Origin: Deltaproteobacteria bacterium
Lineage (GTDB): Bacteria; Desulfobacterota; Binatia; UBA1149; SPBQ01
NCBI GenBank assembly: GCA_029262375.1
Contig: JAJCZM010000046.1
Span: 1,367-65,366 of the forward strand
DNA: 64,000 nt
Direction: 5' to 3'
Below, one piece after another: positions 34,043-62,652 of the stretch. The translations under genes were made by a program, and so were the position numbers. The notes beneath the pieces are model-generated. The model worked only from the letters and a program-made list of their open reading frames with translations. It was not told the DNA's origin and did no database searches. Numbering within the stretch: the first letter of the stretch is position 1; every line of letters starts with the position of its first letter.

Positions 34043-35434
34043 TCAGTTCTCGCCAGTCAGACGATCGACGGCAGCCAGCAGGTTCTCGCACTGCTTGCGC
34101 ACACTGAAACCGGACTCCGCCAACCGCTGCGCATTCGCGCCCTTCGTCTGCTTCCAGTTCTCGCCGAGTGCGCGCGTGATCGTGGCGGCTAGAGAATCGG
34201 CCAACAGCTTACGATCGTCGGTCTCCGGTACGAGCGCCCCGACCTCGTCGGACACGAAGTCGCGTGGACCACCGGAATCCGCACCGATCACCGGTGTCCC
34301 GCAGGCCATGCATTCGATGAACACCAACCCGAACGGCTCCTTATAGGAAGGAAAACAGCCTACATCGGCGGTGTTGTACAACACCGCGAGCTCGTCTTGC
34401 GGACGCGGGCCCAAGAAGAAGACATTGCGCAGTCCCAGTTGCTCGTAAGCGAGATCTTGCATCTTCACCTGATCTTCGTGTGGCCCCGATCCCACGACCA
34501 ACGTCGCGACATTGCCAAGCTTCTCGTATTCGACGGCGGCCTGTAGCACGCAGTCCAGACGCTTCCAGTCGGCGAACTTGCCGCAGAATATGACGACCTT
34601 CTCGATACCGCCGTCGATCGCGACCGGACCGGCATTGCGTGAGCTCCCCTCGTACGGAGCGGTCGTGAAGCCGGCGAGCACATTGTCTCGGTCGGCGTAG
34701 AGATCCGTAGGAGTGTCGATGCGACGGAACGCCGAGTGGTTGTACCCGTTCGGAGATAGCACGACACGTTCCCGCGGAAATTCAGGGAAGATCTCGGCCA
34801 ACGCTTCGATCTGCTGGTTCGAGATCGCCGCGCACAAATCGACACCAACGCGGGAGCGATTGGAATAGTCGAAGACCCCGGATCGACGCATCATGGGCAA
34901 GAAGCGCTCAGGGAAGTGTTCGGGATCACGACCACCCTTCTCGTGCGCGAACATCTTCAGGGCGGTACCGTGCACGAAGCACAGGAGCGGGATGCGGCGC
35001 TTGCCCTCGGCTACCCGCGCCTCGAGCACATCGCTCAAAACGAGTGGGTTGAGAAAAGAGTGATGCGCAACCGCCAGTGAGAACTCCGCGTTCTCCTCGC
35101 GTTCGACGGCGTTCATATACTCGAGCACCTCTCGGGTCAGACGCGTGCGATAGGCCGCGAACTCCTCGTCGCTCATCGAGTGCCAGCGATACGAGCTGGT
35201 CGGCGAGATCGATTCGCAGATGGGAATGTCATGCTCGAGCTCAAAAACGCGCACGTCTGCGTCACGCGTCGTCTGCTTACTCGACGGATACATCGAATAG
35301 CTCGCCGTCCCCGCTAGATCGTTGTAGGCGAGGTGGTGCGACTCGTGCAGAATCCCTGACCCCGGCGCGTACTCGCCACCGCGTTGCCAGTTGTTCGTTC
35401 CGAGTTGAAAGATCAGTCTGCGCACCTTCGACAT
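34043..35434 (-). CDS. Glycosyltransferase family 4 (GT-B) with atypical N-terminal half
   Basis: C-terminal motif YKEPFGLVFIECMACGTPVIGADSGGPRDFV. The ATG is at 35434. Confidence 0.75.
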   Translation of the reverse strand: MSKVRRLIFQLGTNNWQRGGEYAPGSGILHESHHLAYNDLAGTASYSMYPSSKQTTRDADVRVFELEHDIPICESISPTSSYRWHSMSDEEFAAYRTRLTREVLEYMNAVEREENAEFSLAVAHHSFLNPLVLSDVLEARVAEGKRRIPLLCFVHGTALKMFAHEKGGRDPEHFPERFLPMMRRSGVFDYSNRSRVGVDLCAAISNQQIEALAEIFPEFPRERVVLSPNGYNHSAFRRIDTPTDLYADRDNVLAGFTTAPYEGSSRNAGPVAIDGGIEKVVIFCGKFADWKRLDCVLQAAVEYEKLGNVATLVVGSGPHEDQVKMQDLAYEQLGLRNVFFLGPRPQDELAVLYNTADVGCFPSYKEPFGLVFIECMACGTPVIGADSGGPRDFVSDEVGALVPETDDRKLLADSLAATITRALGENWKQTKGANAQRLAESGFSVRKQCENLLAAVDRLTGEN

Positions 35435-35614
35435 GAGCACCCCCGAGCGGCGCAGCCGGCCGCATCACGACATTCTACCAAACCGCCCCCTCAGCGGGGG
35501 CGTTTGCACTAATCCGGCGCTCGGGGCCGCGCAGGTCTTCGATCGCGCACATATATGTGCGACCCTAGGCAGATATCAGCGCGCTCCAACGAGCGCCGGG
35601 AGACCACCTACTGC

Positions 35615-36994
35615 ATGAAGCACCTGTTCACCGCCGCCCTCACTCTACTTCTTCTCGCCACAACATCTCTCACCGCCTCAGCGTCGAACTGCGGTCAGCC
35701 CGTCAGTGACGGCGACGCCCCGCGAGCCGTCGACGCGCTGCACATTCTGCGTTCCTCGGTCGGAGATCGTGATTGCACGCTCAGGGCCTGCGACGTAAAC
35801 GGCGACTGCCGCGTCAGTGCCGGCGATGCCCTGCGGACCCTGTCAGCTGCCGTGGGCTTCAACTCCGGCGGCTACTGCGACGCCGAATGCCCGGCCGAGA
35901 AACGCTGCGAATCCTCCGGCGCCCCCATGTGCAACGGCACGTGCCCCGCCGGTTACGTCTGCACGGCCGATCTCACCGACGAGGTCGAGCCGGACGTGCG
36001 CGCGACGATCTGCCACGTGCCGCCTGGGAACCCTGAGAACGCGCACAGTCTGCTCGTGGGACTCGATGCGGTTGCCGCTCACCTGGCACATGGAGACTAC
36101 CTCGGGCCCTGCGACAACGACGGCCGCTTCGAGGCCGATCACAAGCGCGACAAGGATCACGACAGCGACTCAGATTCCGACAGCGACAGCGACTCCGATT
36201 CTGACGACAACGAGTTCGTAGAGTGCATCTGCGAACCGCGCATGGTCTCCACGACGACGCTGCCGGTCGCAACGACGACCACGACGACGCTCGACGAGGC
36301 AACGACGACGACGACCACGACTACGACCTCGACCACACTCGAGGCCGGTGACGATTCGGACAACGACGGTCTCGGCGACGACGTCGATCCGTGTAACGAC
36401 GATGCTCGCAACGCCTGCTTCGGCGAGGCCGCCGTCGACGCAGCAACGGGGAACGTCATCCGCATCAATGCGAACCCCTCAACCAGCGACGAATGCGCGG
36501 GCGAGCGTGTCGATTGCAACGGGCAGACCTGGAACGCCGACTTCGGCTTCAACGACGCGGGCGACGGCAACGGCGCGTGCTCGCTAGGCGGCGGCGAGCC
36601 GAACTGTGTGATCACCGGAATCACAGAGATATTCGGGTGCGAAGACGATGCGACCGAAGATCTGCTGCAATGCGAGCACTTCGACCGACCGGCCGACCCG
36701 GAACTCAGATACTCCTTCAACGTGCCCAACGGCAGCTACCTCGTGAACCTCTTGTTCGCGAACACGTTCGAAGAAACGGCCGCGCCGGGCGCCCGCGTCT
36801 TCGCCATCACGGTCGAGGGCAATGTCGTTTACCCCGCGTTCGACCAGGTGGTCGCGGCGGGCGGCAGCGGGCGCGCGGTAGTGCGATCGGTTGTGGTTTC
36901 GGTCGACGACGGTGACGGTCTGTCGATCGAATTCGGGCACATCACACAAAACCCAAGCGTGAAAGCCATCGAAATTCTCGTGGCAACTCCATGA
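35615..36994 (+). CDS. Secreted modular protein with signal peptide, Cys-bracketed dockerin-like module, CHxPPGNP..AHLAHGD motif, SD-repeat, poly-Thr linker, TSP3-like Ca site and malectin-like domain
   Basis: Signal peptide MKHLFTAALTLLLLATTSLTASA. Dockerin-like CDVNGDCRVSAGDALRTLSAAVG. Linkers DSDSDSDSDSDSDSD and TTTTTTTTTS. TSP3-like DDSDNDGLGDDVDPC. Malectin-like IRINAN...YSFNVPNGSYLVNLLFANTF...GARVFAITVEGNVV...DGDGLSIEF...PSVKAIEIL. Confidence 0.8.
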   Translation: MKHLFTAALTLLLLATTSLTASASNCGQPVSDGDAPRAVDALHILRSSVGDRDCTLRACDVNGDCRVSAGDALRTLSAAVGFNSGGYCDAECPAEKRCESSGAPMCNGTCPAGYVCTADLTDEVEPDVRATICHVPPGNPENAHSLLVGLDAVAAHLAHGDYLGPCDNDGRFEADHKRDKDHDSDSDSDSDSDSDSDDNEFVECICEPRMVSTTTLPVATTTTTTLDEATTTTTTTTTSTTLEAGDDSDNDGLGDDVDPCNDDARNACFGEAAVDAATGNVIRINANPSTSDECAGERVDCNGQTWNADFGFNDAGDGNGACSLGGGEPNCVITGITEIFGCEDDATEDLLQCEHFDRPADPELRYSFNVPNGSYLVNLLFANTFEETAAPGARVFAITVEGNVVYPAFDQVVAAGGSGRAVVRSVVVSVDDGDGLSIEFGHITQNPSVKAIEILVATP

Positions 36995-37015
36995 TTACGT
37001 TGTAGTTAGCGCGCG

Positions 37016-37042
37016 CAGGCCCCGTGAGTGCACGGGTGCCTG
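37016..37042 (+). terminator. Hairpin downstream of gene 35615-36994 (terminator-like)
   Basis: CAGGCCCCGTG agtg CACGGG(t)GCCTG, followed by an A/T-richer stretch. Confidence 0.45.
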
Positions 37043-37123
37043 TGCTAAGTAAAGTTTACCGCAGGCATTCTGGATGGGACTCTGTTGGGGTGGCTAGCTC
37101 TTCGTAGGGCTGCCTCCACCTAA

Positions 37124-38428
37124 ATGCAGAGAAATTTTGCCGCAGCCATCGTCTTCGAATGTCTGCTTGCGTGCTTCGTCACGCTCCTACATCCAACCCA
37201 CGGCCAAGCCGGCTGTGGCACTCCGGTGAGTGGACAGTCTTCGCCCCGGGCTACCGACGCGTTGCGCATCCTGAGCGCATCGGTGGGCACGTCGACTTGC
37301 ACGCTCGGGTCTTGCGACGTCAACCGCGACTGCGTCATCAGTGCCAGCGACGCACTCAACACGCTCCTGGCCGCGATCGGTACGCCTGCCATGCTCGATT
37401 GCAGCGCGGCCTGTCCGAGCCCGACGCCCTGCGAAAGCGCGGCCTCGAACATCTGCAACGGCACTTGCCCCTACGGCATGGCCTGCGCCGCTTCTGAGAG
37501 CAGCAGTCTGGCTCCCGACCCGCGTGTCACCGTCTGCCACGGTGTACCTCGGCGAACCTCCACCGTACCGCTCGGCGCGCTCGACGATCATCTTGCTCAC
37601 GGTGATGCCCTGCGCGCCTGTGAACAAGCGAATTCGCAAAGCGCTGCGCCCGTTCTCAGCAACTCGCTTGGCGGCGCCTCGGGCACGGTGAGTGCGTGCA
37701 GCTGCGTGGTGGTAGAGGTTCCCACTACCACCACCACCACCACGAGTACCTCGACATCCGTCACATTGCCGGCCGCTCCGGCCGACGACAGCGACAACGA
37801 CGGGCTCGTTGATAGCGAAGACCCCTGCCCCACCGAGCCACTCAACGAGTGTTTCGGCCACGTCGCCATCGACACGAGCACACAGTTGCCCGTACGTCTG
37901 AACGCCAATGCCGCCGACCTCACCGAATGCGGCGGCAACCGCATCGATTGCACCGGCCGCGTCTGGCTCGCCGACTTTGGCTACAACAAGCGATTCACCG
38001 GTTCGGATTGCGACATCAATATCGCCGGCCAAGGCTGCTCGATCAGGAACACGTCCGACATCTTCGGCTGCTCTAACAAATCGACGGAGGACGTTCTGCT
38101 CTGCGAGCACTTCGATCGTGCCCCCGAGCCAAACCTCATCTATTCCTTTAACGTCCCTAACGGCCGCTACCTGGTGAATTTCCTGTTCGCCAACACGTTC
38201 AAGGAAACTCGCACCGTGGGGAGCCGACTATTCAACGTCGCCATCGAGGGGGCGATCGTCCTGGAGAACTTCGACCAAGTCGCGACTGCCGGCGGTAGCC
38301 GGATCGCAATCGTTCGGTCTATCGTCGTAGAGATCTCCGACGGCGACGGAATGCAGATCGAATTCGGACATGTCGTCGAGAATCCGACGGTAAAGGCCAT
38401 CGAGATCCTCACTAATTCCGCCTTCTGA
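37124..38428 (+). CDS. Secreted dockerin-like + malectin-like protein (paralog of 35615-36994)
   Basis: Same order of modules as the upstream gene: CGTPVSGQSSPRATDALRILSASVG...CDVNRDCVISASDALNTLLAAIG, VCHGVP...DDHLAHGDALRAC, TTTTTTTSTSTS, DDSDNDGLVDSEDPC, VRLNAN...YSFNVPNGRYLVNFLFANTF...VKAIEIL. Confidence 0.8.
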   Translation: MQRNFAAAIVFECLLACFVTLLHPTHGQAGCGTPVSGQSSPRATDALRILSASVGTSTCTLGSCDVNRDCVISASDALNTLLAAIGTPAMLDCSAACPSPTPCESAASNICNGTCPYGMACAASESSSLAPDPRVTVCHGVPRRTSTVPLGALDDHLAHGDALRACEQANSQSAAPVLSNSLGGASGTVSACSCVVVEVPTTTTTTTSTSTSVTLPAAPADDSDNDGLVDSEDPCPTEPLNECFGHVAIDTSTQLPVRLNANAADLTECGGNRIDCTGRVWLADFGYNKRFTGSDCDINIAGQGCSIRNTSDIFGCSNKSTEDVLLCEHFDRAPEPNLIYSFNVPNGRYLVNFLFANTFKETRTVGSRLFNVAIEGAIVLENFDQVATAGGSRIAIVRSIVVEISDGDGMQIEFGHVVENPTVKAIEILTNSAF

Positions 38429-38700
38429 GCGAACCGCAACGGCAATGCCTGCGCGTCTGCTTCGCCGTTCGCCCTACACTAGTGCGCAACACGGACGTCA
38501 AAGCGGCGGCCGAGTGTCATCAGCGTGGCGCAGGCGTCTACCTCCGCCTTAGAAAAGTCGCGGAAAACACAGATGTCAGGCCTACGTTCTTCCGGCCGCA
38601 TCTTTGCTCTACTAGCCCCGCTCGGCCCATTCAGGTCGAAGCCCACAAGGGAAAGCTCATCACCAACGCCGAGAGCGTGTGACGAGGGGGAACACTAGGG

Positions 38701-41310
38701 ATGCACAATTTGTTGCGCAAGATCATGACACTGACCGCCATTGCGGCAGTGATTACACTAACACTCGCTCCACGAGTCGAGGCCGCATGCGGCGACTTCG
38801 ACGGCAGCGGTTCGGTCACAGCGACCGATGCCCTGGGGATTCTGAGCACCGCGGTCGGCATCTCCGACTGTGCAATGGCTCGCTGCGATATCGATTCTAG
38901 TGGCGCCGTCACTGCAACCGATGCACTCGCGGTGCTTGGCAGCGCGGTTGGCCAGCCAATATCGCTGGTTTGCCCCGGAGTGGCGGTCACCCAAATCAGT
39001 GAGCTCCCTCGTGCCACAGGCGCGGTGGTTCCGGCTGACAACGCGGCCGGCTTTACCGCCAGCCTCGCCGAAGGTGATGCCCCGAGCGGTATTCTTCTGG
39101 GAGCGATCAGCGAGAACTTCGGAGCTGGGAGCTCAATGGCAGCTTGCCAGATCGCCAACATGACGAGCATTGCCATGACGTCGGCCGCCGAGGCCGACAA
39201 AATCCTTTGCTACATCCAAGCGGCATTCGACGGCATCGAGTCGCTCGAAGGCGGCACGATCGACATCTACGACGGCGAGTACCACACATTGGCACTCGAC
39301 ATCATCAACGATGACTTCGGTCCCGGCGGCCCGGGCGGTCCTGGCGGTCCAGGCGGCGGCGGTCCCAGCCTGATCAAGATGAAGCTCGAACGCAGCGGCG
39401 AGTCGATCACCGGCTTCGAACTGTTCGCATGCGAAGATCGCGACGGCGAGTCCGTTCAGAGCGAGTACATCAGCCAGAACATCAGCAGCACCGACTTCTC
39501 GATGGTCGCCAAAGGCCTGCGCGAAGACGACTGGGGCAGCAACGCCCACCAAGTCGTGGTCAACGGCGACCTCAATGACGCCGGCCTGTTCGTCGGCACC
39601 AAGCTGATCACGATGAGTTACTCGAGCGCATGGGGTGAGGAAGCCGAAGGCTATGGTCGCATGGTAGTCGGCCAAGGCGCCGGCACACTCGACCTTGACG
39701 GCTTCGATGCGGGATCGCACCAGAATCCTTTCGAGGACGAGGAACAGGTCTACTCGCACCGAGTAACCTCGGATGCAGAACTCTACGACCACAACGTTGC
39801 AGGCGACGACTACGAGATCGGCCTGCTGGCGATTGGCACGGGCGCGGCAAAGATCGGCTCGCGCCACGGTACGCGCTATTCCTGGCAAGACTTCACCGAG
39901 GTCGAAGGTTGGGACGGCGAGACCACGCTGATCGACTACGATCTCGCGGAAGCTTTCGTGGATCTCGTACTTGATACCGACCTGCCTGAGGTCGAGGACG
40001 TAGAAATCGCGTTCGCCGAAACGGAGTCTTTCGGCTGCGACGAGGCGCCCGAGGCCACCGTCACGATCGACATGGCGGTGACGCAGACGATGTGTAACCA
40101 CCTCGAACTCGAGAAGGAATGGTTCGACTGTTGGAACACAGTCAACGGTAACGGCGGTCCCGTCGGTGAGCCCGGCCCCGGCCCTGGTCCCGGTCCCGGC
40201 GACGGCGGCCCCCCGCTCTGCGAAGGTGAAGGCTGCAGTTGCTCCGAAGCCGGCATTTGCGGCGGACAAGCCCCCGGCGGTTGTTGGTGCGATGCGGCGT
40301 GCTTCGATAGCGGCGACTGCTGCTTCGATGCCTGCGACACCTGCGGGTCCTGCGGCGGCGGCGGCGGATGCCCGCCTGAAGACCCGAATTGTGGCGGCGG
40401 ATGCCCGCCCGAAGACCCGAACTGTGGCGGCGGCAAATGCGGCGACGGCTACTGCGAGGAGTGGGAAGACGGCTGGAACTGTCCGGAGGACTGCGGATTG
40501 CCTTGCGATCCTTCGGTCGATCCCGACTGTTTCCCGTCCTGCGACCCGAGTGTAGATCCCGACTGCTTCATGCCGTGTGAGCCTGGTGATCCGGAGTGCT
40601 TCCCGGGATGCCCGCCTGAGGACCCCGCTTGCGACGCCTACTTCTGCGGTGACGGCCTTTGCGACGTCGGCGAAGATGGTTGGAACTGTCCGGAAGATTG
40701 CGGTCAAGCCTGCCCTCCCGGCGACAGCAGCTGCGAGCCGCAGTGCAATCCGGACATCGACCCACAGTGTGCGCCCAGCGACTGCGGTGACGGTCACTGC
40801 GACGAGTACGAAGACGAGTGGAGTTGCCCGATGGACTGCAGCGACGGCACCGGTTGCGATCCGGCGACCGATCCGGATTGCGGCCCCCCGCCCTGCGGCG
40901 ATGGCTACTGCGATCCGGGCGAGGACGACTGGAGTTGCCCGATGGATTGCGGCGACGGCACCGGCTGCGATCCGGCGACCGATCCCAATTGCGGACCTCC
41001 GCCCTGCGGCGACGGGATCTGTGAGCCGGGCGAGGACGACTGGAGTTGCCCGAGCGACTGCAGCTTCGATCCGGGTTGCGATCCGGCGACCGATCCCAAC
41101 TGCGGTGTCGCGGCCTGCGGCGACGGCTACTGCGAGCCCGGTGAGGACGAGTTGAACTGCCCGAGCGATTGCAGCTTCGATCCGGGTTGCGATCCGGCGA
41201 CCGATCCCAACTGCGTACCGCCGCCTGCCGACCACTGCGGAGACGGCGTCTGCGATCCGGCATGGGATGAGGGGGAGGCCAACTGTCCGGTCGATTGCGG
41301 CCCGCAGTAG
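38701..41310 (+). CDS. Large secreted protein with a canonical-looking double dockerin-like module, an unassigned ~400-aa central region and a C-terminal array of Cys-rich mini-modules
   Basis: Signal peptide. CGDFDGSGSVTATDALGILSTAVG...CDIDSSGAVTATDALAVLGSAVG has two DxDxSGxxxxxD loops each followed by a DAL helix. GPGG/GPGP linkers are present. A GAGGGGG SD lies upstream. Confidence 0.8.
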   Translation: MHNLLRKIMTLTAIAAVITLTLAPRVEAACGDFDGSGSVTATDALGILSTAVGISDCAMARCDIDSSGAVTATDALAVLGSAVGQPISLVCPGVAVTQISELPRATGAVVPADNAAGFTASLAEGDAPSGILLGAISENFGAGSSMAACQIANMTSIAMTSAAEADKILCYIQAAFDGIESLEGGTIDIYDGEYHTLALDIINDDFGPGGPGGPGGPGGGGPSLIKMKLERSGESITGFELFACEDRDGESVQSEYISQNISSTDFSMVAKGLREDDWGSNAHQVVVNGDLNDAGLFVGTKLITMSYSSAWGEEAEGYGRMVVGQGAGTLDLDGFDAGSHQNPFEDEEQVYSHRVTSDAELYDHNVAGDDYEIGLLAIGTGAAKIGSRHGTRYSWQDFTEVEGWDGETTLIDYDLAEAFVDLVLDTDLPEVEDVEIAFAETESFGCDEAPEATVTIDMAVTQTMCNHLELEKEWFDCWNTVNGNGGPVGEPGPGPGPGPGDGGPPLCEGEGCSCSEAGICGGQAPGGCWCDAACFDSGDCCFDACDTCGSCGGGGGCPPEDPNCGGGCPPEDPNCGGGKCGDGYCEEWEDGWNCPEDCGLPCDPSVDPDCFPSCDPSVDPDCFMPCEPGDPECFPGCPPEDPACDAYFCGDGLCDVGEDGWNCPEDCGQACPPGDSSCEPQCNPDIDPQCAPSDCGDGHCDEYEDEWSCPMDCSDGTGCDPATDPDCGPPPCGDGYCDPGEDDWSCPMDCGDGTGCDPATDPNCGPPPCGDGICEPGEDDWSCPSDCSFDPGCDPATDPNCGVAACGDGYCEPGEDELNCPSDCSFDPGCDPATDPNCVPPPADHCGDGVCDPAWDEGEANCPVDCGPQ
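40200..41307 (+). repeat. Cys-rich repeat array with 7 copies of CGDGxCxxxE(D/E)xxxCPxDC, interleaved with CDPATDPxC, CDPSVDPDCF and CPPEDPNCGGG units
   Basis: Read from the translation: CGDGYCEEWEDGWNCPEDCG, CGDGLCDVGEDGWNCPEDCG, CGDGHCDEYEDEWSCPMDCS, CGDGYCDPGEDDWSCPMDCG, CGDGICEPGEDDWSCPSDCS, CGDGYCEPGEDELNCPSDCS, CGDGVCDPAWDEGEANCPVDCG. Confidence 0.85.
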
Positions 41311-41376: not shown

Positions 41377-41416
41377 GGGCGGTGCTCCACACGAGCACCG
41401 CCCGTTTTTCTTTTTG
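41377..41416 (+). terminator. Rho-independent terminator after gene 38701-41310
   Basis: Perfect 11-bp stem GGGCGGTGCTC cacac GAGCACCGCCC, followed by gTTTTTcTTTTTg. Confidence 0.85.
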
Positions 41417-41432
41417 TGCTAACCTATGCGGG

Positions 41433-42578
41433 ATGCGCCGCGCCGGACGGACCGTAGTATTCCTCGTATTCCTGGTCGCGGCGGCGACCTGGTCATCGAG
41501 TTCGATGTTCGCTCTGGGCAACATCGTGCATCCCGACCGCCCTGTCATGGCGGTGACCGTTCCGAGCGCACTGGTCCGGCCCCTCAACACTCTCGCGATC
41601 CACAGCAGACGACCCCGCTCGATTTCCGTAGCGCTGCTGAGCGATTCGACGGCGATCGCTTACCCCGAGGGCAAGCGTATCCACGATCGCTTGTCGCAAA
41701 ATCTCGCCTCTCGCTGGACAGGCCGAGCATCCGTCTACGTTGCGTCGCTCAGTTCCTTGGGCATGACGCCGGCGGGCTTCTACCTCCTAGCCGATCCGAT
41801 CACGGCTGCGCATCCCGATGTCGCGATCGTGACCTTCAATCTCGGGCTGGCGCGTAGTCGGCTTGCCGCCAGCCTGCAGCGTCCCGAGTTGGCGGGCTGG
41901 GTGCTTGCGCGCCGCTGGTGGCAGACGCTGATTGAGCTCGACCTGCATAAATATGGTGTCACCGCAGACCGCCTTCTCCTGTACCGCCTCTTCGTGCTCA
42001 GCGGTCAGACAAGTCGCTGGCTCGAGCAGAGCTCGCAGCAGGCACGGCTGGGAGCTTTGCGCCAAGCGGTAGAACAACTGTTTGCAGATCGATTCGACTT
42101 CACGGGCGACCTCGCCGCACGCCGAGCGCGCGCGACGCTCACCTACATGGAGGAGATGGCGCCGGGTTTGCCCCCGCGTCGCAGCGCGCGAAGCGCACAA
42201 CGGTACTACAGCGAAGTCATGGACGGACTCAGCGAAGACCACTGGGTCGCCGAGATAACTCGCGCGCTACTACAACAACTCGCACGCGCCGGCACACAGA
42301 CAATTCTCTACGTTCCGCCCATCAATGTAGAGTACGCGAAGTCGCTCGGAGCTTACGATGAGGCCGGTATTGGGAGAACGCTCGCAATGCTCGAGCAGTT
42401 GGCGCTCGATACGGGAGCAGAGTTCGCCGACCTGCACGACTTACTTCCGGATGTAGCGTTTCGCGATACCGGCGGGCATTTCACGCACGAACCACCGTAC
42501 GACGGTCCACAACTGGTCGCTGAAGCCTTGACCCCGTACGTCGAGCTTCTGGTGCGAGACGTGTCCACGAATCGCTGA
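41433..42578 (+). CDS. Membrane-anchored SGNH/DltD/AlgJ-like putative O-acyltransferase partner
   Basis: N-terminal anchor. VALLSDSTA resembles block I (GDS) and RDTGGHFT resembles block V (DxxH). Its stop overlaps the MBOAT start by 1 nt. Start trimmed to 41433, downstream of the terminator. Confidence 0.5.
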   Translation: MRRAGRTVVFLVFLVAAATWSSSSMFALGNIVHPDRPVMAVTVPSALVRPLNTLAIHSRRPRSISVALLSDSTAIAYPEGKRIHDRLSQNLASRWTGRASVYVASLSSLGMTPAGFYLLADPITAAHPDVAIVTFNLGLARSRLAASLQRPELAGWVLARRWWQTLIELDLHKYGVTADRLLLYRLFVLSGQTSRWLEQSSQQARLGALRQAVEQLFADRFDFTGDLAARRARATLTYMEEMAPGLPPRRSARSAQRYYSEVMDGLSEDHWVAEITRALLQQLARAGTQTILYVPPINVEYAKSLGAYDEAGIGRTLAMLEQLALDTGAEFADLHDLLPDVAFRDTGGHFTHEPPYDGPQLVAEALTPYVELLVRDVSTNR

Positions 42579-44002
42579 TGCTTTTCAATACGCTACAGTA
42601 TGCGCTCTTCCTCGGCCTGGTGCTGCTCGGCCTACGCGTGCTTCCGGCGCGCATGCGCACCGGCTTACTGCTGGTGGCAAGCATCCTGTTTTACGCACTC
42701 TGGCTGCCGGCGTACCTGATCCTGCTACTGGTAGACCTCGGCGTGAACTATGCGTTGCTGCGCGCGATGCTCGTCGGCAAGCGACCGCGCGCGTACCTCA
42801 CGGCGTCGGTCGTGTTCACCCTCGGGCTACTCGCATGCTTCAAGTACGCCGCATTCGTGATCGAATCGCTGCTTGCCGTTCTTCCGGCCGTCGGACTGAG
42901 CGGTCTAGCGACCGCTTGGTCGCCCGATCTACCCGACTTCTTTTTGCCTCTCGGGATTTCCTTCTACAGTTTCCAGATGATCGCGCTCGCGGTGGACACG
43001 TATCGGCGCGACATCGAACCGGTAGAGAGCTTCTCTCGCTACGTGCTGTTCATTTCGTTCTTCCCGCAGCTCATCGCCGGGCCGATTCTACGCGGAGCGG
43101 AAATGCTGCCGCAGCTCGCGCGCGGCGGCGAGATGACACCGCAGCGCACGCGTCGTGGCGGCTGGCTGCTGGTGTCGGGGCTTCTCAAGAAAGTGGTGTT
43201 CGCAGACTATCTGCTCGCGCCGTTTGTCGACGATGCCTTCGGCGCACCCGCTGTCGGGTCGGCCGCGTATCACTTGATCGTAACGTACAGCTTCGCTTTT
43301 CAGATCTACTTCGATTTCTCCGGCTATGTAGACATGGCGCGAGGGTCGGCACTACTGATGGGCTTCGAGATCCCGACCAATTTTCTCGAGCCATACCTCT
43401 CGCGCAATCCGGCTGAGTTCTGGCGACGCTGGCACATCACGCTCTCCACTTGGTTGCGCGACTACCTCTACATAGCACTAGGCGGCAATCGTCTCTCGGC
43501 CGCACGAACCTACTTTAACCTGTTCGCAACGATGCTACTGGGCGGACTGTGGCACGGCGCCGCTTGGACGTTCGTCATTTGGGGCGGCCTGCACGGAGTC
43601 CTGCTGGCAGGCCATCGCCTGATGGGCGGAACCGCCGGCGACATCGATCGGCCGATCACGCTGCGCGACCTTCCGGGCCTGCTGTTCACCGCCCACGCAG
43701 CGGCACTTCTGTTCGCCGTGTTTCGGGCGCCAACGGTCGGCGACGCCGGTCTGTTCTTCTCGGGCTTCATGACCATGGACTTCCTGTCGGGATGGCCGGC
43801 GGTCCAGACGATCATCGTTGTGGTGTGTATCGGCTCGCATCTCGTCGAGCGCGCGGTTCGCCCCCGAGTGGGCCGACTCCAGCAACTAGCGGCCCACACG
43901 GCCTGGGGCCCTGCCGTAGAGGGCACGCTGGCCGGCCTACTGATCGGACTCGCCTACGCCGTTGCCGGCGCCGGCGGCGAGTTCATCTACTTCCAGTTTT
44001 AA
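42578..44002 (+). CDS. MBOAT family O-acyltransferase (AlgI/DltB/PatA-like)
   Basis: MLFNTLQYALFL..., FWRRWHITLSTWLRDYLYIALGGNR with the conserved His, and GGLWHGAAWTFVIWG. Confidence 0.9.
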   Translation: MLFNTLQYALFLGLVLLGLRVLPARMRTGLLLVASILFYALWLPAYLILLLVDLGVNYALLRAMLVGKRPRAYLTASVVFTLGLLACFKYAAFVIESLLAVLPAVGLSGLATAWSPDLPDFFLPLGISFYSFQMIALAVDTYRRDIEPVESFSRYVLFISFFPQLIAGPILRGAEMLPQLARGGEMTPQRTRRGGWLLVSGLLKKVVFADYLLAPFVDDAFGAPAVGSAAYHLIVTYSFAFQIYFDFSGYVDMARGSALLMGFEIPTNFLEPYLSRNPAEFWRRWHITLSTWLRDYLYIALGGNRLSAARTYFNLFATMLLGGLWHGAAWTFVIWGGLHGVLLAGHRLMGGTAGDIDRPITLRDLPGLLFTAHAAALLFAVFRAPTVGDAGLFFSGFMTMDFLSGWPAVQTIIVVVCIGSHLVERAVRPRVGRLQQLAAHTAWGPAVEGTLAGLLIGLAYAVAGAGGEFIYFQF

Positions 44003-45330: not shown

Positions 45331-45373
45331 GCGTGGCTTGTGTCGGTCTGCGACGGGGTCTAGTGCTGGCCGT

Positions 45374-45988
45374 ATGGCCCGCCGCATCGTCCACTACTTC
45401 GACTACAAGAGCCCGTACGCGTTCCTGGCGCAGAGCGACGCGTTCGCCTTGTCCGACTCGCTCCCCGAACCGATCGAGTGGCTCCCCTACACGCTCGACA
45501 TTCCGAAGTTTCTGGGTGCTGCCGAGCTCGACGGCGACGGCAACGACACGATGGGAAGCAGAACCGAGCATCAGTGGCGTCGCGTTCGATACCTGTACAT
45601 GGACTGCCGTAGGCTCGCCAACGAGCGCGGCCTGACGCTGCGCGGACCCCAGAAAGTTTTCGATACATCCATCGCGCACATCGGCTTCTTCTACGCGCGC
45701 GCACACGGCGACTTTCGCGCGTACCACAACGAAGTCTTCACACGGTTTTGGCGCCGCGAGCTCGATATCGAAAACCCCGACGTCATCGCGTCACTGCTCG
45801 ACCAATCCGGTATCGATGCATCGGGCTTCGCCGAGTACCTGGGCGGCGAGGGCCGCACCGTCCACGACCGCAATCAGGCGGATGCCGAAGCCCACGGAAT
45901 CTTCGGCGTACCGAGTTACCTGGTCGGCGACGAGCTCTTCTGGGGAAACGAACGCTTTGATCGCGTAAGCGATCTCGCACGGTCATAG
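45374..45988 (+). CDS. 2-hydroxychromene-2-carboxylate isomerase / DsbA-like family protein
   Basis: IVHYFDYKSPYAFL...GIFGVPSYLVGDELFWGNERFD. Confidence 0.8.
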   Translation: MARRIVHYFDYKSPYAFLAQSDAFALSDSLPEPIEWLPYTLDIPKFLGAAELDGDGNDTMGSRTEHQWRRVRYLYMDCRRLANERGLTLRGPQKVFDTSIAHIGFFYARAHGDFRAYHNEVFTRFWRRELDIENPDVIASLLDQSGIDASGFAEYLGGEGRTVHDRNQADAEAHGIFGVPSYLVGDELFWGNERFDRVSDLARS

Positions 45989-48670: not shown

Positions 48671-50440
48671 GTCACCCTTGGCCTTGAACTGGGCCGGATC
48701 GTTCTTCGACGGAGAAGACATCGGCACTTCGAAGCACAGGGTGCCGCCGTCGTCGATGATGAACTGGGCGGTCACCGTCGGCGTCAGTGGCAGCCCCGGC
48801 GCCGCAAAGTTCAGACCCTTCATCTTCACTTGGATCTGAGACTTGCCGGCCGTTCCTTCTTTGAATTTCACTTGTTGGATTCCATCAGGAGTGCCGGTCT
48901 TGTCTTTGTGCTTGAAGCCCTTCGTCCCTGCGGCCTTCCAGCAAGGCTTCGTCCCGCAGGTTCCGCCCGGCAACACGCCGGCTTCGAGAAGGGGCTGCGG
49001 AGTCGCCGAGGTGTCCCACACACACAGACGGTAGTCGGCCGTGCCGCCGACCGGATCGGCGAACTCGAGCAACGTCGTCGCGTCGCCCTTGTTGTACTTG
49101 AACTTGAGTTGGTTCTTCGACGGATCGCTCGCCTTGAGCTTGATCTGCATCTGCGACTTGCCCGACACGGCGGTACGACAGCCGACGATCGGAGCAGGAC
49201 CACATAGAACCGGCAAGGTCGTGGTCGTCGTGGTGGTGGTTGTAGTGGTCGTCGTCGATGTCGTGGTCGGAGGAGGAGCGATGGCGCCGGTCAGATCGGC
49301 CGCCGCCATATCGTCGGAGGCTCCCGTAATCGGGTTGGGGCCGCAGAACCGGCCCGACCACAGACCGATATCATCTTGTGCGACGACGATGCAGGGGATG
49401 CCGGGGGCACCGAAAGGACCGCCCTCCGTGAGCAGATCACCTTCTTGAATCGGCAGCCCGGCGCAGTCGAAGGCGCCGATCGCGAAGGAAAAAGGTGATA
49501 CCGAGTAGAGGATCATGTCCGCGGGCGGCGCGTAGGCACCGTCGCCGGCGACGTCGAGTACGATGAGCGCGTCCACGTCGTCAGCAGGAGCGCCCAGGCC
49601 GAGCGCGGGACCAGGCGCGTACAGACCGAAGCCGCCTCCGAAGGCAACGAAGATGTCCGACGGCAACGCGCCGAGGGCCGCAGCAGTCGGAGGATCGACG
49701 GAGAAGTAGACCGGAACGTCCGGCAGGGTATCTCCCGTGGGATCCCAAGCGCCGATCGGTGCGGCATCAAAGGCATCAACGGCATCGATGAACGGACCCG
49801 GCTCGATCAGGGGGATTGCCGGCGCGGTCGGCAATCCGAACGGGATCGACGGGAGGCCGTTGCCGTCGAAGCCCTGATAGTTCGGGCTTGCACCCGGTGT
49901 GATGGCACCCGGAACCAGCCACGCAGTGCCGTTCGGTGCGGTAATGAATACGTCGGAAGCGGCCTCACTCGATCCGCCGCCGAAGAGGTCGGCAGATTCG
50001 GCGCCCACGTCGGTCACCGTGAAAGGACCTGGGGTACCCGGAGCGCAGGCGCCCAAGGGATCGCCGGTCACGAGATCACCCACGCCGAAGAGCAGCGAGG
50101 TCGTCCCTGCCGGATACGGAAACGCGACACCCACGAGCGGACTCAGTCCGCTCGAGAATGCGTTGACGTTGTAAGGACCGCCGGTGGCCGGCCAACCCAG
50201 CCCGCAGCCGGGAGGACCCATCGGGACGCTGTAAGGCGTCCCCGGACCGAAGATGTCTCCGTCGATCGAGAAGCCGGCACCAAAGCACGGCGGGCCCGCG
50301 GGCGGCGGCGGCGGCGGCGTGGCGCCGGTAAAGGAATTAGACATCGACTGCGCGAGAACACGATTAACACTCACGGAAAACATCACTGCGATGGCAGTGA
50401 GGCAGGCGAGCAGTAGGCGGACATTGCGGTTTGATTGCAT
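48668..50440 (-). CDS. Secreted Gly/Pro-rich protein with poly-Thr linker and the shared FKAKGD C-terminal domain
   Basis: Signal peptide MQSNRNVRLLLACLTAIAVMFSVSVNRVLA, linker TTTSTTTTTTTTTTTTT, and a C-terminal ~179 aa homologous to the C-terminus of 56117-57856. A GGGGG SD precedes ATG 50440. Confidence 0.75.
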   Translation of the reverse strand: MQSNRNVRLLLACLTAIAVMFSVSVNRVLAQSMSNSFTGATPPPPPPAGPPCFGAGFSIDGDIFGPGTPYSVPMGPPGCGLGWPATGGPYNVNAFSSGLSPLVGVAFPYPAGTTSLLFGVGDLVTGDPLGACAPGTPGPFTVTDVGAESADLFGGGSSEAASDVFITAPNGTAWLVPGAITPGASPNYQGFDGNGLPSIPFGLPTAPAIPLIEPGPFIDAVDAFDAAPIGAWDPTGDTLPDVPVYFSVDPPTAAALGALPSDIFVAFGGGFGLYAPGPALGLGAPADDVDALIVLDVAGDGAYAPPADMILYSVSPFSFAIGAFDCAGLPIQEGDLLTEGGPFGAPGIPCIVVAQDDIGLWSGRFCGPNPITGASDDMAAADLTGAIAPPPTTTSTTTTTTTTTTTTTLPVLCGPAPIVGCRTAVSGKSQMQIKLKASDPSKNQLKFKYNKGDATTLLEFADPVGGTADYRLCVWDTSATPQPLLEAGVLPGGTCGTKPCWKAAGTKGFKHKDKTGTPDGIQQVKFKEGTAGKSQIQVKMKGLNFAAPGLPLTPTVTAQFIIDDGGTLCFEVPMSSPSKNDPAQFKAKGD

Positions 50441-53727: not shown

Positions 53728-55908
53728 TTAGATCTGCTCCTCGTAGAGCATGGTCGTGGAAGTCGTGGGTGGCTCGACGATCGTGGTTGACGTACTCGTC
53801 GATGTCGTTGTGGACGTGCTCGATGTCTCGCACGTCCCCATCTCGATGACGATGTCGTCGATAGCACCCGAGCCGAACAGGCTCACGATCATCGACCAAA
53901 CGCCCTCGACGCGGTCGAACTCGACGACGGTAACGCCGTTGTTGCCGACCTGCGGCAACGCGACCGAGCTGAGCAACTCGCCCTCGGCGCCGTACAGTTC
54001 GACGACCGCCGGATCTTCGGTGGTCTCGACGTCGAGCAGCCTGAGCGACTTGACGACAACCGGCCCGATGGCCGTGAAGTCGAGATGCGTTGCTACCGGG
54101 CGTGCGTTGCCCTGGTCAGACGGATTGTCGACCAAGCCGTCGGCCGGAGCGACGTCGATCAGGTTGTGGGCGACGATCAGAATGTTGCCCTGCGCGACCG
54201 AGTTCTCGAACTCGGCGCCGGCTTCACCGCCGACACCGATGCCGGGGCCGTCGAACGTCTCGTTCGGTGTACCGAGATCGTCGTCGCCACCGCTGCAGCT
54301 CCCTGACGAACATGCGCTGTCGTAGATCACTGCAGCATTGTCGCCGGGAAGACGCTCGATGTTGTCACCGTACACGCCGACCGGGCCCATGCCGCCATCA
54401 CAGTAGACTTCCGAAAGGATCGTGCCTTCAGCGTGCCCCTCGAAGCTGATGACATCGACCGAGCCAGCGGCCATGCCGTCGTAGGCACAAGCATCGACTT
54501 CCTCATCGCACCGATCTTGCGTGCACTCGTCGTCGTCGGAGCAAGCGGGCGCCTCACCGGCGCTGCAGCCCAGCTCGGCGTCGCAGCGTTCCTCGCCGTT
54601 GCAGAACTGGCCGTCGTCGCAGACAAGCGCCTCGCCCGCCAAGCAGCCGAGCTCGGCGTCGCAGGTCTCTTCACCATTGCAGACGTCGTTGTCGCTACAC
54701 GCGACCGGGCCGTAGGTGCAGCCTTGGTCTTGGGAGCACGAATCAACTGTACAGGCATCGCCGTCATTGCAGTCCATAGCCGCGTGGGCGCACCCCTCGA
54801 GCGCATCGCAGCTATCGACGGTGCAGTTGTCCTCGTCGTCGCAAACGAGCGCAGCGCCGGCCATGCAGCCCGCAGCCGCGTCACACGACTCGTCGCCGTT
54901 GCAGACGTCGCCATCGTTGCAGACCAGAGGCTCGCCTTCGACACAGCCCGACTCCGGGTCGCAGCTCTCCATACCGTTGCAGACGTCGCCGTCATCGCAG
55001 CTGATGGGCTCGTTAAGGCAACCGCCCTCGGCCGAACAGCTATCCATGGTACAAGCGTTGCCGTCGTCGCACTCGACGGCGCTGTGGCTGCAGCCCTCGA
55101 CGGGATCACAGCTATCGACCGTGCAGTCGTCGAGATCCTCGCAGGGCGCGGCGTCGCCGTCGATACAGCCGAGCTCGGCATCACAGTCTTCGACGCCGTT
55201 ACACACATCGCCGTCGTCGCAGACGAGCGCTTCGCCTTCGACGCAACCGGCGCTCGGATCGCAGGTCTCAGTACCGTTGCAGGTGTTGCCGTCGTCGCAG
55301 ACGATCGGCTCGTTGCTGCAACCGTCGGAGTCGTCGCAGAGATCGTCGGTACAGGCGTTGCCGTCATCGCAATCGCGCGGAGCGGCTTCGACACAACCGG
55401 ACGTCGCATCGCAGGTCTCTTCGCCGTTACAGACGTTTTGGTCGTCGCACTGCAGTGCTTCGCCTTCCATGCAGCCCGACTGCGGATCGCAGGTCTCGGC
55501 GCCGTTGCACACGTCGCCGTCGTCGCACATCACGGCGTCGCTCATGCATTCGCCGGGACACAAGATGTTCGACTGCAAGCCGATGGCGCCGGCCATGACG
55601 CGCAACGCGTCCGTGGCACAGACCACGCCGTTCGAGTCGACGTCGCAAACCGCGGGGCGGCAGGAACTCGATAGGCCGGTGCCAAAACGCAGTATATGCA
55701 GCGCGTCGCTGGCCGTCAGAGCGCCGGACTCATTCGGATCACCGCACATGCCGTCGGCAATGAAGCAGGTATCGGTCGTGCAAGCATTGTCGTCGTTACA
55801 GTCGACGGCGGTGTCACAGGGGATGAAGGTTGGCTGGGCCCACGCGGGCGTCGCCATGAACAAGGTCAGCGCGGCCGCGGCGACATAGCGTAATACTGGG
55901 TAATTCAT
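53728..55908 (-). CDS. Secreted protein with ~15 four-Cys repeats (CDDGxxCNGxExCDxxxGC / CDDGNACTxDxCxxxxGC), an embedded dockerin-like module, an unassigned C-terminal domain and a Ser/Thr tail
   Basis: Signal peptide MNYPVLRYVAAAALTLFMATPAWA. Dockerin-like CGDPNESGALTASDALHILRFGTG...CDVDSNGVVCATDALRVMAGAIG. The repeat units were counted by eye. Confidence 0.8.
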   Translation of the reverse strand: MNYPVLRYVAAAALTLFMATPAWAQPTFIPCDTAVDCNDDNACTTDTCFIADGMCGDPNESGALTASDALHILRFGTGLSSSCRPAVCDVDSNGVVCATDALRVMAGAIGLQSNILCPGECMSDAVMCDDGDVCNGAETCDPQSGCMEGEALQCDDQNVCNGEETCDATSGCVEAAPRDCDDGNACTDDLCDDSDGCSNEPIVCDDGNTCNGTETCDPSAGCVEGEALVCDDGDVCNGVEDCDAELGCIDGDAAPCEDLDDCTVDSCDPVEGCSHSAVECDDGNACTMDSCSAEGGCLNEPISCDDGDVCNGMESCDPESGCVEGEPLVCNDGDVCNGDESCDAAAGCMAGAALVCDDEDNCTVDSCDALEGCAHAAMDCNDGDACTVDSCSQDQGCTYGPVACSDNDVCNGEETCDAELGCLAGEALVCDDGQFCNGEERCDAELGCSAGEAPACSDDDECTQDRCDEEVDACAYDGMAAGSVDVISFEGHAEGTILSEVYCDGGMGPVGVYGDNIERLPGDNAAVIYDSACSSGSCSGGDDDLGTPNETFDGPGIGVGGEAGAEFENSVAQGNILIVAHNLIDVAPADGLVDNPSDQGNARPVATHLDFTAIGPVVVKSLRLLDVETTEDPAVVELYGAEGELLSSVALPQVGNNGVTVVEFDRVEGVWSMIVSLFGSGAIDDIVIEMGTCETSSTSTTTSTSTSTTIVEPPTTSTTMLYEEQI

Positions 55909-56116: not shown

Positions 56117-57856
56117 TCAGTCGCTCTTGGCCTTGAACGACTCGCCTTCGTTCTTCCTCACGCCGACCCCGGAGAACGACGCCGACCAGCAGATTCCCGA
56201 ATCCGAATGCAGTTGAACCTCCACCGGAAGCGCCGTTGGAAGCGGCGGGAGCACCGGCAGCGTGAGCGCTTTGCCATCGGCTTTGAGCTTGAGCTTCGCC
56301 TTGGCATCGATGCCCACACCGAGTCTGAGCTGCGAGACCCCGTGCGGCGTCAGCAGCTTGTCCTTATATAGATAGCCCTTCGCGCCGGGCGGATTGCCTT
56401 TCGCGCGCCAGCAATCCTTCGAATTCGCACAGATGTCTCCGGCCGGGATTTCGGCTTCGAACACAATCGCAGGCGCGCCCGAGGTATCGAACACGCACAG
56501 CCTCAACGAATCGCTCACTGTGGGATCGCCGTAATCGGCGGCATCGGTCTGCTCGCCCACCCATCTGAAATCCAAGCGATCGAGCGTGTCGGGACTGCGA
56601 TCTCTGAACGAGAACTGTGCCTTGCCGGAAGCGAGGGGCTCTCTGCAATCGGCGCGCGGCACGACGATACCGGTGCACTCGCCCGCCCCATCGCACTCGC
56701 CTACGGCGCAAAGACTGCCTTCGAGCGCGCACGAGGTAGCGGCCGCCTCGACCGTGCAGTCGGCGGCGCAGCAATCGCCGTTGGTTCGATTGCCGTCGTC
56801 GCATTGCTCGCCGCAATCGAGTCGGCCATTGCCGCAGCCGAGCCACAGCGCCATCGCGTTGCCCTCCGCCTGGAAGTTCTCGGCCGGATCGTTCCACGGA
56901 TCGGCACCCTTATCGCCAAGCCAGCCATACGGATCGATCACGTTGGCAGCACTGGATTCCGGACTGCCCGCGGGCGGATGCCGCCGTACCTCGAAGTGCA
57001 GATGCGGCGCGAACGTGCCGAAGTTCCCGACGGTACCGACCTGCTGGCCGGCAACCACCGGCGCGCATTGCCCGACGAGTAGATCGGTCAGCGGGTTGCC
57101 GCCTGTATCGGTCCCCGCGAGATCGGCGGCGTGCAGGTACCACGACGCGTAGCCGTGATCTCCCACCACGCCATGGTCGATGTAGAACGTATGAAACTTC
57201 TCCCACCCGCTCGACGCACCGAAGTGACCGTTGATGGGGTCCTCCTGTGCCTTGCAGAGACTGCCGTCGGCGGTGGCCACGAGCGGCGTCCCCGCCTGGT
57301 AGCGATAGTCGTAGCCGGCGTGGCTCGCGTAACTGAGCACGCTCGGATTCGACAGCGCACCTTCGTAGTTCCCGTTGACCACGTACGAGGAGCCGTCGGC
57401 GCTGTAGTAGCCGCAGATGCACAGCGTGTTGAGAAAACACGCCGGGAAGTCGGGCTCCGCCGGGCACAGTTCATTGACGACACCGCGCTCGGCACTCTCG
57501 CCCGTGTAGGCCGTGATCTGCGTATCGCAGCAGCGTTGGTAGAACGGCCCGGTGTGATCCATCACCGAGATCATCGGCGCCGAGTACGCGTCTTGGCCGA
57601 GCCAGTCGACCGGAAACGCTGGAAGAATAAAGCCGTCGCCGCAAACACCCGAGTGGCATTGTTCCGGACCGGTACAAGGATCGGCGTCGTCGCAATCGTC
57701 GTTCGTCACGCAGGCCGGGCCGGCGTATGCCGGCGGCGCCCACAGCGCGGCCGGCTGAAGAACAGCCAACGCAAGGGCACCAACGACGGCGAGCATCTGC
57801 GCGACCTGCGCGCCCCGCACGATCCACGCTCTCCTTTTCAGGCTGGTCGGCCGCAT
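56117..57856 (-). CDS. Secreted M23 (LytM-type) metallopeptidase with Cys-rich N-terminal region, one Myxococcus-type Cys-rich repeat and the shared FKAKSD C-terminal domain
   Basis: HxxxD as SHAGYDY and HxH as APHLHFEV. Cys-rich repeat CGNGRLDCGEQCDDGNRTNGDCCAADC. The C-terminal ~177 aa are homologous to 48671-49207. The ATG is at 57856; the track used TTG 57859. Confidence 0.8.
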   Translation of the reverse strand: MRPTSLKRRAWIVRGAQVAQMLAVVGALALAVLQPAALWAPPAYAGPACVTNDDCDDADPCTGPEQCHSGVCGDGFILPAFPVDWLGQDAYSAPMISVMDHTGPFYQRCCDTQITAYTGESAERGVVNELCPAEPDFPACFLNTLCICGYYSADGSSYVVNGNYEGALSNPSVLSYASHAGYDYRYQAGTPLVATADGSLCKAQEDPINGHFGASSGWEKFHTFYIDHGVVGDHGYASWYLHAADLAGTDTGGNPLTDLLVGQCAPVVAGQQVGTVGNFGTFAPHLHFEVRRHPPAGSPESSAANVIDPYGWLGDKGADPWNDPAENFQAEGNAMALWLGCGNGRLDCGEQCDDGNRTNGDCCAADCTVEAAATSCALEGSLCAVGECDGAGECTGIVVPRADCREPLASGKAQFSFRDRSPDTLDRLDFRWVGEQTDAADYGDPTVSDSLRLCVFDTSGAPAIVFEAEIPAGDICANSKDCWRAKGNPPGAKGYLYKDKLLTPHGVSQLRLGVGIDAKAKLKLKADGKALTLPVLPPLPTALPVEVQLHSDSGICWSASFSGVGVRKNEGESFKAKSD

Positions 57857-57984
57857 CAAGTCGAGAGTGAATCGCCGAGGCAGTCTAAGTCAAGATGGGA
57901 TCGTGCCTTGCGAATCCCGACGGCGCCTCACATGGTGGCGCGAACGCGGACCCAAGCGGGCCAACCGAGGCGCGACGAGACGAA

Positions 57985-62639: not shown

Positions 62640-62652
62640 GTCGATACCCCTT

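Follow-up and report, generated by a model that had tools for sequence, protein, structure and literature searches.

The closest described relatives of the module discussed here are the type I dockerins of cellulosomal bacteria, which are located at the C-termini of glycoside hydrolases. The Xyn10B dockerin of C. thermocellum (1OHZ_B / 2CCL_B) is built from two loop-helix segments of ~22 residues each, whose loops follow the pattern D-x-[DN]-x-[DNS]-G-x-[VI]-x-x-x-D. In an intramolecular clasp, a residue before the first dockerin loop contacts the C-terminal tail, and this contact matters for stability and for cohesin binding (Slutzki et al. 2013, PMC3821032). Dockerin-like modules also occur outside cellulosomes, and what they do there has been a question ever since a catalogue of them appeared in 2009. 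We analyzed four copies of such a module in a 64,000-nucleotide stretch from a Deltaproteobacteria bacterium (contig JAJCZM010000046.1; this whole stretch is hereafter called the window), where they are carried by four genes that we term A to D. The window modules share the segment and loop design of the Xyn10B dockerin. Unlike the cellulosomal copies, they are N-terminal on lectin-like or Cys-rich proteins, and they contain Cys at four core positions, none of which is a Cys in 1OHZ_B, 2CCL_B or the 8X39 double dockerin. Profile searches, sequence matches in the PDB and a predicted fold together leave us highly confident of a type I dockerin-like identity, with an F-hand segment that is duplicated, most clearly so in C and D.

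Identity of the four modules

We compared the isolated modules to Pfam and found Dockerin_1 (PF00404, curated gathering threshold 22.9 bits) to be the best or only family for each of them. Both segments of module C are aligned, with 28.8 bits for the isolated module and 27.2 bits in the full protein, above the threshold in either case. Both segments are again aligned in module D, which scores 25.2 bits in isolation and, below the threshold, 20.1 bits in the full protein. In A (16.0 bits, E 0.014) and B (14.4 bits, E 0.044) only the second segment is aligned, and neither module reaches the threshold. NCBIfam returned zero families for the modules. A phmmer search of the PDB with module C recovered the Xyn10B dockerin (1OHZ_B, E 5.8e-5; 2CCL_B, E 8e-5), and the sequence search also matched the Clo1313_0689 double dockerin and the A. 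cellulolyticus ScaB dockerin (E 0.01). Module C alone was more informative here than a profile of all four window modules, which gave weak matches (E 0.04-0.3).

Among the window modules only C was modeled with AlphaFold2, using a 29-sequence alignment. The model has a mean predicted local distance difference test score (pLDDT) of 95.7 and contains three helices (14-24, 32-35 and 45-55). Its top 33 matches in a Foldseek comparison with the PDB are all cellulosomal dockerins, with template modeling (TM) scores of 0.63-0.80. The best of them, the ScaB dockerin of A. cellulolyticus (4UYQ_B / 4UYP_B), superposes with a TM score of 0.80 and a root-mean-square deviation (rmsd) of 1.4 A over 64 columns at 30% sequence identity (4UYQ_B, probability 1.00). 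The Xyn10B dockerin has the same three-helix fold as the model (TM 0.73, rmsd 1.4 A, 58 columns). The modules do not behave as an EF-hand pair (PF13499 / PF13405): EF-hand_6 scored only 12.7-14.9 bits against its 25-bit threshold, and the entering E helix is missing in the model of C.

A hidden Markov model (HMM) built from 25 metagenome homologs only, with zero window sequences, matches exactly A to D among the window's 750 six-frame open reading frames (ORFs), with E values from 5e-27 to 3e-18 (3.3e-18 for A, 1.6e-18 for B and 5.9e-19 for D). No fifth module was found in these ORFs with this HMM at E<=10. The module is thus no chance finding, and the window holds these four copies and no more. 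Each protein contains a single module of ~66 amino acids (aa), which directly follows the signal peptide in A, B and C and comes after one short Cys-rich repeat in D. The four Cys and two A-x-D-A-L-x-x-L motifs, in which the D-A-L helix starts lie, are invariant in the alignment of all four modules. The N-termini of A to D read as Sec signal peptides, with a positive stretch, a hydrophobic core and candidate cleavage motifs (ASA, GQA, VEA and AWA).

The sequence-only reading of this DNA had placed modules on these four genes, in A to C right behind the signal peptides, and the ORF translations locate them as it claimed. The fourth copy, in D, is present as well, although it spans 55552-55752 on the minus strand rather than nt ~55579-55746. 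That reading had also likened the module to type I dockerins, which the Dockerin_1 profile, the PDB sequence match and the predicted fold of C bear out. Its description of three tandem genes is correct for the positions: A, B and C are co-directional, with D 12 kb off on the opposite strand. However, A and B share 45% identity over their full length (BLASTP, 462 columns, E 5e-118), and C is unrelated to either outside the module. A and B are thus tandem paralogs, and the trio represents one duplicated gene plus C. An ortholog of C in a Candidatus Binatia metagenome-assembled genome (MAG; locus L071) shares 52% identity over 484 aa and likewise has its module N-terminal. The Pfam Malectin match in A covers aa 348-444 with 48.3 bits, and the 459-aa gene call is also present on Logan contig L096; the exact protein B occurs in the Logan assembly of SRR15505517. 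The Cys-rich repeats of D match Dicty_CTDC in 6 stretches of a Pfam scan (82.9 bits). Positions of all features are given in Table 1.

Table 1. Genes, dockerin-like modules and neighboring features in window coordinates
Feature	Position	Strand	Content	Evidence
GT4 glycosyltransferase	34043-35440	-	flanks the cluster	
Gene A, 459 aa	35615-36994	+	putative signal peptide, dockerin-like module, Cys-rich stretch, Ser-Asp (SD) and Thr-rich linkers, C-terminal malectin domain	ORF translation
Module of A, aa 24-90	35684-35884	+	degenerate first loop, canonical second loop DVNGDCRVSAGD, four core Cys	
His/Cys-rich motif of A	about 36011-36112	+	C-H-x-P-P-G-N-P ... A-H-L-A-H-G-D-x-L-G-x-C	
SD repeat of A	36161-36205	+	perfect (DS)n, about 15 residues	
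Gene B, 434 aa	37124-38428	+	tandem paralog of A, architecture as in A	Pfam Malectin, 51.8 bits
Module of B, aa 29-95	37208-37408	+	degenerate first loop, canonical second loop DVNRDCVISASD	
His/Cys-rich motif of B	about 37532-37622	+	degraded copy (CHGVPRR...DHLAHGDALRAC)	
Gene C, 869 aa, 74 Cys	38701-41310	+	putative signal peptide, dockerin-like module, ~400-aa unassigned domain, Cys-rich CGDGxC...CPxDC repeats	
Module of C, aa 28-93	38782-38979	+	two canonical loops DFDGSGSVTATD, DIDSSGAVTATD; four core Cys	
Cys repeats of C	40438-41172	+	at least 6 copies of 19-residue CGDG[YLHI]C-x7-[WL]-x-CP-x-DC, alternating with CDP..DP.C units	
SGNH/GDSL-like protein and MBOAT O-acyltransferase	41382-44002	+	3' of C; the two genes overlap each other by one base	SGNH/GDSL: weak match
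DsbA-family gene	45338-45988			
FKAK(G/S)D domain of E and F, ~175 aa, C-terminal	E 48671-49204; F 56120-56644	-	motif GGTCGTKPCWK; ends in FKAK(G/S)D	
Gene D, 726 aa, 70 Cys	53728-55908	-	putative signal peptide, one Cys-rich repeat, dockerin-like module, ~13 Dicty_CTDC-like Cys-rich repeats, unassigned C-terminal domain, Ser/Thr tail	
Module of D, aa 53-119	55552-55752	-	two canonical loops DPNESGALTASD, DVDSNGVVCATD; four core Cys	
Gene F	56117-57859	-	M23 peptidase, myxo_disulf_rpt repeat, FKAKSD domain	TIGR02232, 31.7 bits (repeat)
GT4 glycosyltransferase	57895-59268	+	flanks the cluster	
956-aa protein	60021-62891	-	hydrophobic segment, then Lys/Cys-rich N-terminal region; G-N-S-Q-G-G motif in C-terminal part	

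Calcium loops, cysteines and distribution of the family

When 1.84 billion cluster representatives (50% identity) were searched exhaustively with a profile of the module, 11,696 proteins matched at E<=1e-3 and 2,452 at E<=1e-10. A word-indexed search with the four window modules returned 44 short metagenome proteins, in many of which the module runs up to the stop codon, all with one common pattern: C-G-D ... TA[ST]DAL..L..AVG...C.(L C).C-D-[VA]-[DN]-x-S-G-x-[VI]-T-A-T-D-A-L ... AVG.P..L.C-P-x-(C). One core Cys is placed just ahead of each loop and one a few residues past each helix. In 367 unique modules, the core HMM positions 27, 54, 59 and 88 are occupied by Cys in 73%, 81%, 82% and 77%, and the additional positions 57 and 91 in 56% and 49%. 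The commonest arrangement has six Cys (158 modules), followed by the four-Cys pattern of the window (77 modules). The sequence-only reading had staked its claim on profile or structure searches recovering the modules and on homologs conserving the loops and flanking Cys, and both are what we found. Pfam already covers part of this Cys-bearing subfamily, with Dockerin_1 detected at E<=0.001 in 23 of 61 full-length representatives. In the literature that we searched, we found no description of a four-to-six-Cys staple, of its inverse relation with the first calcium loop or of a concentration in Binatia.

A pair of canonical 12-residue D-x-[DN]-x-[DNS]-G loops is found only in C and D; A and B have a canonical second loop only. 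The first 'loop' of A and B comprises 13 residues (CGQPVSDGDAPRAVD / CGTPVSGQSSPRATD) without acidic ligands at positions 1, 3 and 5, and A and B therefore contain one calcium site at most. The earlier proposal of two EF-hand-like loops per module thus holds for C and D and fails for A and B, where the first loop is degenerate. The second loop is canonical in 306 of 342 modules across the family and 12 residues long in 339 of them; the first loop is canonical in 166 of the 342 and can contain insertions of up to 28 residues. Loop position 12 is Asp in 96-99% of the 367 unique modules. Calcium dependence and a role in protein assembly would be expected by analogy, from membership in the dockerin family.

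Both helices are strongly conserved, with TA[ST]DAL..L[RQK].AVG recurring in both segments and up to 4.3 bits of information per position. In cellulosomal dockerins, the corresponding helix positions contact the cohesin. The second segment is better conserved than the first (mean 2.69 vs 2.33 bits per position), which suggests that binding would proceed mainly via the second segment. Such reliance on one segment would contrast with the symmetric dual binding mode of C. thermocellum dockerins.

We investigated which cysteines may pair. Cys 57 and Cys 91 co-occur (phi 0.85), and their joint gain and loss argues for a 57-91 bond in six-Cys members. For the core, the patterns of loss favor a putative 27-88 plus 54-59 pairing: Cys 27 and Cys 88 are both missing in seven modules and are the only ones retained in three. 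The published clasp, which in many dockerins links the residue at position -1 of the first loop to the C-terminal tail (PMC3821032), points to the same pairing. All four core Cys are present in 163 of 167 modules with a degenerate first loop vs 91 of 109 with a canonical one, and a fifth or sixth Cys in 136 of 163 vs 41 of 91. Since modules with degenerate first loops carry more Cys, these counts suggest, as a lead, that disulfides may compensate for the lost first calcium site. We also weighed a nearby DsbA-family gene as a candidate for a dedicated oxidase, but its sequence shows no evident signal peptide.

We scanned one genome per species for 185,579 species, a set that does not contain the window's genome, with a degenerate DNA pattern for C-D-x-[DN]-x4-[VI]-[TS]-A-[TS]-D-A-L. 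The scan returned 91 stretches from about 25 assemblies, with 5-12 loci per assembly, and one Binatia MAG contains at least 12 module loci by the strict DNA pattern. Nearly all matching assemblies are labeled Candidatus Binatia, UBP10 or 'uncultured Myxococcales / Deltaproteobacteria' MAGs, and a few matching contigs are labeled Nitrosopumilus, Gemmatimonadota, Pseudomonadales or Clostridiales. Three loci on contigs labeled Nitrosopumilus sp. (L043, L074 and L089; CAXQPB01...) hold Binatia-type dockerin modules, D-like Cys-rich repeat proteins and the FKAKGD domain described below, and these contigs are probably mis-binned bacterial sequences rather than archaeal genes. The window itself encodes an AidB-like acyl-CoA dehydrogenase, whose closest named homologs are from Candidatus Binatia (about 65% identity). 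Together with the ortholog of C, this points to a Binatia-like host. The sequence-only reading took four copies in one neighborhood as a sign of an assembly system; this argument is weak, as two of the copies are tandem paralogs and the tag is lineage-wide with many copies per genome. The passengers attached to the module in the 61 representatives include beta-propellers (DUF5122, SBBP, PD40), reprolysin metalloproteases, a C-type lectin and a beta-helix, and those in the window are malectin, Cys-rich repeats and unassigned domains.

A putative docking role and its rivals

We propose, with moderate confidence, that the module is a redox-locked docking tag, which tethers Sec-exported, Cys-rich exoproteins to a common receptor; the docking function itself, argued from analogy, has in our estimate about an even chance of being correct. 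Upon export into an oxidizing compartment, two disulfides (three in six-Cys members) would join the N-terminus, the inter-segment linker and the C-terminal tail. These staples would represent the covalent counterpart of the non-covalent clasp that stabilizes cellulosomal dockerins. The second loop, nearly always canonical in the family, would bind calcium, and the first would do so only where it is intact, as in C and D and not in A and B. The stapled helix pair would then form a portable docking tag, whose conserved helix faces may bind the common receptor, located on the cell surface or in the matrix. The tethered passengers would be unrelated to each other, malectin-type lectins and Cys-rich repeat proteins here, and metalloproteases, beta-propellers and lectins elsewhere. 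The receptor would be neither encoded in the window nor a Pfam-recognizable cohesin here. Because the subfamily is large, strongly conserved, nearly confined to one lineage and present in many copies per genome, it is well suited to co-occurrence, co-evolution and AF-Multimer screens for a partner. For the annotation of the window, this means that A to D are better described as surface or matrix proteins (lectin-like, Cys-rich adhesin-like) than as parts of a cellulosome. We suggest only tentatively, and with more doubt than belief, that Binatia and their relatives possess a non-cellulosomal 'dockerome', in which dozens of exoproteins per genome would carry a disulfide-locked, partly calcium-independent dockerin and the receptor would be a new cohesin class or an unrelated fold. 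If so, this uncultured lineage would use the dockerome as a general means of displaying proteins on its cell surface, and covalent staples would step by step have taken the place of the first calcium site.

Several observations weigh against the docking tag. No Cohesin (PF00963) match was found among the 46 window proteins (E<=0.01, and E<=1 for A to F), in keeping with what the sequence-only reading had reported; this search covers the 64-kb window only and is silent on the rest of the genome. Pfam also revealed no cohesin in 10 repeat-containing neighbors from related loci, and no binding partner was found. These neighbors came from a fragment-based search of related loci for scaffoldin-like proteins with internal repeats of ~130-170 aa, the candidates from which belong to Kazal, PD40, Flg_new, DUF5122 or no family. 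A dockerin function is least secure for A and B, whose scores stay under the Pfam threshold and whose first calcium loop is lost. The Foldseek E-values of the C model are modest (0.016-0.7), because the domain is short. An isolated D38-V63 beta-bridge in the same model puts the C-terminal Cys beside the start of loop 2, and an alternative pairing of 27-54 plus 59-88, in which each segment is bracketed, would fit this geometry. Finally, the statistics relating Cys to loops use related sequences gathered with a biased pattern, so that the Fisher p value of 4e-5 for the difference in core Cys overstates their independence.

We considered the FKAK(G/S)D domain of E and F as a hidden cohesin, following the suggestion in the sequence-only reading that it might be the receptor, and rejected it on the basis of its fold. 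The AlphaFold2 model (pLDDT 94.3) is all-beta with 13 strands, and its closest folds in the PDB are generic immunoglobulin-like or archaellin domains with a best TM score of <=0.39; no cohesin is among the 50 best PDB matches listed. No Pfam family covers the domain at E<=1. Its 18 homologs are always C-terminal, behind Thr-rich linkers or Cys-rich repeats. Of about 91 other loci, 3 (L043, L045 and L075) contain the domain together with genes for the module, which is about chance level for a multi-copy family. FKAK(G/S)D looks like an undescribed domain family that is used like the dockerin tag.

The dockerin fold may instead function without a dedicated protein receptor, as a small structural or adhesive cap, itself stabilized by calcium and disulfides, that helps secreted multidomain proteins to fold or to remain stable, or as a binder of a non-protein ligand such as exopolysaccharide, lipopolysaccharide or a mineral surface. 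We regard this as unlikely, if still worth serious attention: it would account for the lack of a cohesin in the window and in the sampled neighbors and for a first loop that half of the family can do without. A and B, for their part, have a lectin-like character (Malectin), and the neighboring glycosyltransferases and SGNH-like/MBOAT pair hint at polysaccharide modification. PMC5244752, citing Peer et al. 2009, moreover states that the function of non-cellulosomal dockerins is unknown. Yet the conservation of the helices over thousands of unrelated proteins exceeds the usual needs of fold stability, and all solved structures among the PDB matches of this fold are protein-docking modules. The position of the modules raises another possibility. 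Of 144 modules in representatives of >=200 aa, 82 lie <=8 residues from the C-terminus, typically preceded by a Thr-rich linker and ending C-P-x-C, and 18 are N-terminal and 44 internal. A lineage-restricted tag in many copies per genome that so often precedes the stop codon could be a sorting or secretion signal, similar to the C-terminal domains of the type IX secretion system or to PEP-CTERM/MYXO-CTERM tags, and maybe removed once an export or anchoring machine has recognized it. We consider this quite improbable, since all four window copies are N-terminal or nearly so behind ordinary Sec-type signal peptides, the internal copies and the existence of tandem double modules do not fit a terminal signal, neither a transmembrane helix nor a sortase-type motif accompanies the module, and the fold is that of a binding module.

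It is very improbable that the modules belong to a genuine cellulosome, with scaffoldin and glycoside hydrolases encoded elsewhere in the genome. The best sequence and structure matches are indeed type I dockerins of cellulosomal bacteria, but Pfam identified no glycoside hydrolase or carbohydrate-binding module attached in A to D or in the 61 representatives, and no cohesin was found in the window. The host lineage is Binatia-like rather than a cellulolytic Firmicute, and the literature searched yielded no paper that connects Binatia/Binatota to a dockerin, cohesin or cellulosome. A resemblance of generic DxDxDG loops through chance or low complexity, to which the scores of A and B under the Pfam threshold and the weak PDB matches of the four-module profile might point, is hardly credible. 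It is already refuted by the HMM built without window sequences, which finds exactly four ORFs, and by a confident model that matches dockerins only, and it is at odds with conservation across thousands of sequences.

Surrounding genes and comparison with known systems

A to F are six Cys-rich secreted proteins within 22 kb. The Cys repeats that fill the C-terminal third of C match no Pfam or NCBIfam family at E<=1, and the Logan assembly apparently breaks at the repeat inside this gene. A and B contain a His/Cys-rich element between the module and the linkers, which possibly binds metal. The SD repeat of A is followed by long Thr runs and gives weak NCBIfam matches to staphylococcal SD-repeat adhesin models; it is probably a mere linker. 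The C-terminal domain of D has a faint DUF4082 match. The two GT4 glycosyltransferases and the SGNH/GDSL-like and MBOAT genes suggest that the neighborhood of the lectin-like A and B is devoted to polysaccharide synthesis or acylation. The 956-aa protein has no Pfam match at E<=0.01; the motif in its C-terminal part resembles a nucleophile elbow, and it may be an unusual secreted alpha/beta-hydrolase.

We compared the window modules to other docking systems. The ScaB dockerin, the best structural match to C, belongs to an adaptor scaffoldin and, unlike the window modules, has a known cohesin (ScaC). The dockerins of anaerobic fungi are also Cys-containing, disulfide-bonded docking modules on secreted enzymes. 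Their fold is small, beta-structured and unrelated, with no F-hand calcium loops, and the name that they share with the bacterial modules reflects function alone.

Dockerin-like modules known from outside cellulosomes (Peer et al. 2009, cited in PMC5244752; those of anaerobic methanotrophic archaea (ANME); and those of Omnitrophota) are likewise attached to non-cellulolytic extracellular proteins, for which adhesion or assembly is proposed. The 'Dockerin-type' giant proteins of Omnitrophota are a recent example (bioRxiv 10.1101/2023.11.21.568195). These reports describe no Cys-stapled subfamily and no Binatia. ANME genomes carry many cohesins, of which none is seen in our window. A paper on cellulosome genomics (PMC11557425) contains nothing on Gram-negative or other phyla.

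The closest parallel to the putative staples is the clasp of the R. flavefaciens ScaA dockerin and other dockerins (PMC3821032), in which a residue at position -1 to -3 before the first loop is involved. The window modules have a Cys exactly at position -1 (C-G-D) and another in the C-terminal tail. The known clasps are non-covalent, formed by aromatic stacking, hydrophobic contacts or a salt bridge, whereas the window modules may form a covalent disulfide. That putative disulfides are more numerous where the first loop is degenerate suggests a natural series leading from calcium-dependent to disulfide-stabilized modules, which is relevant to the design of oxidation-stable affinity tags that resist ethylenediaminetetraacetic acid (EDTA).

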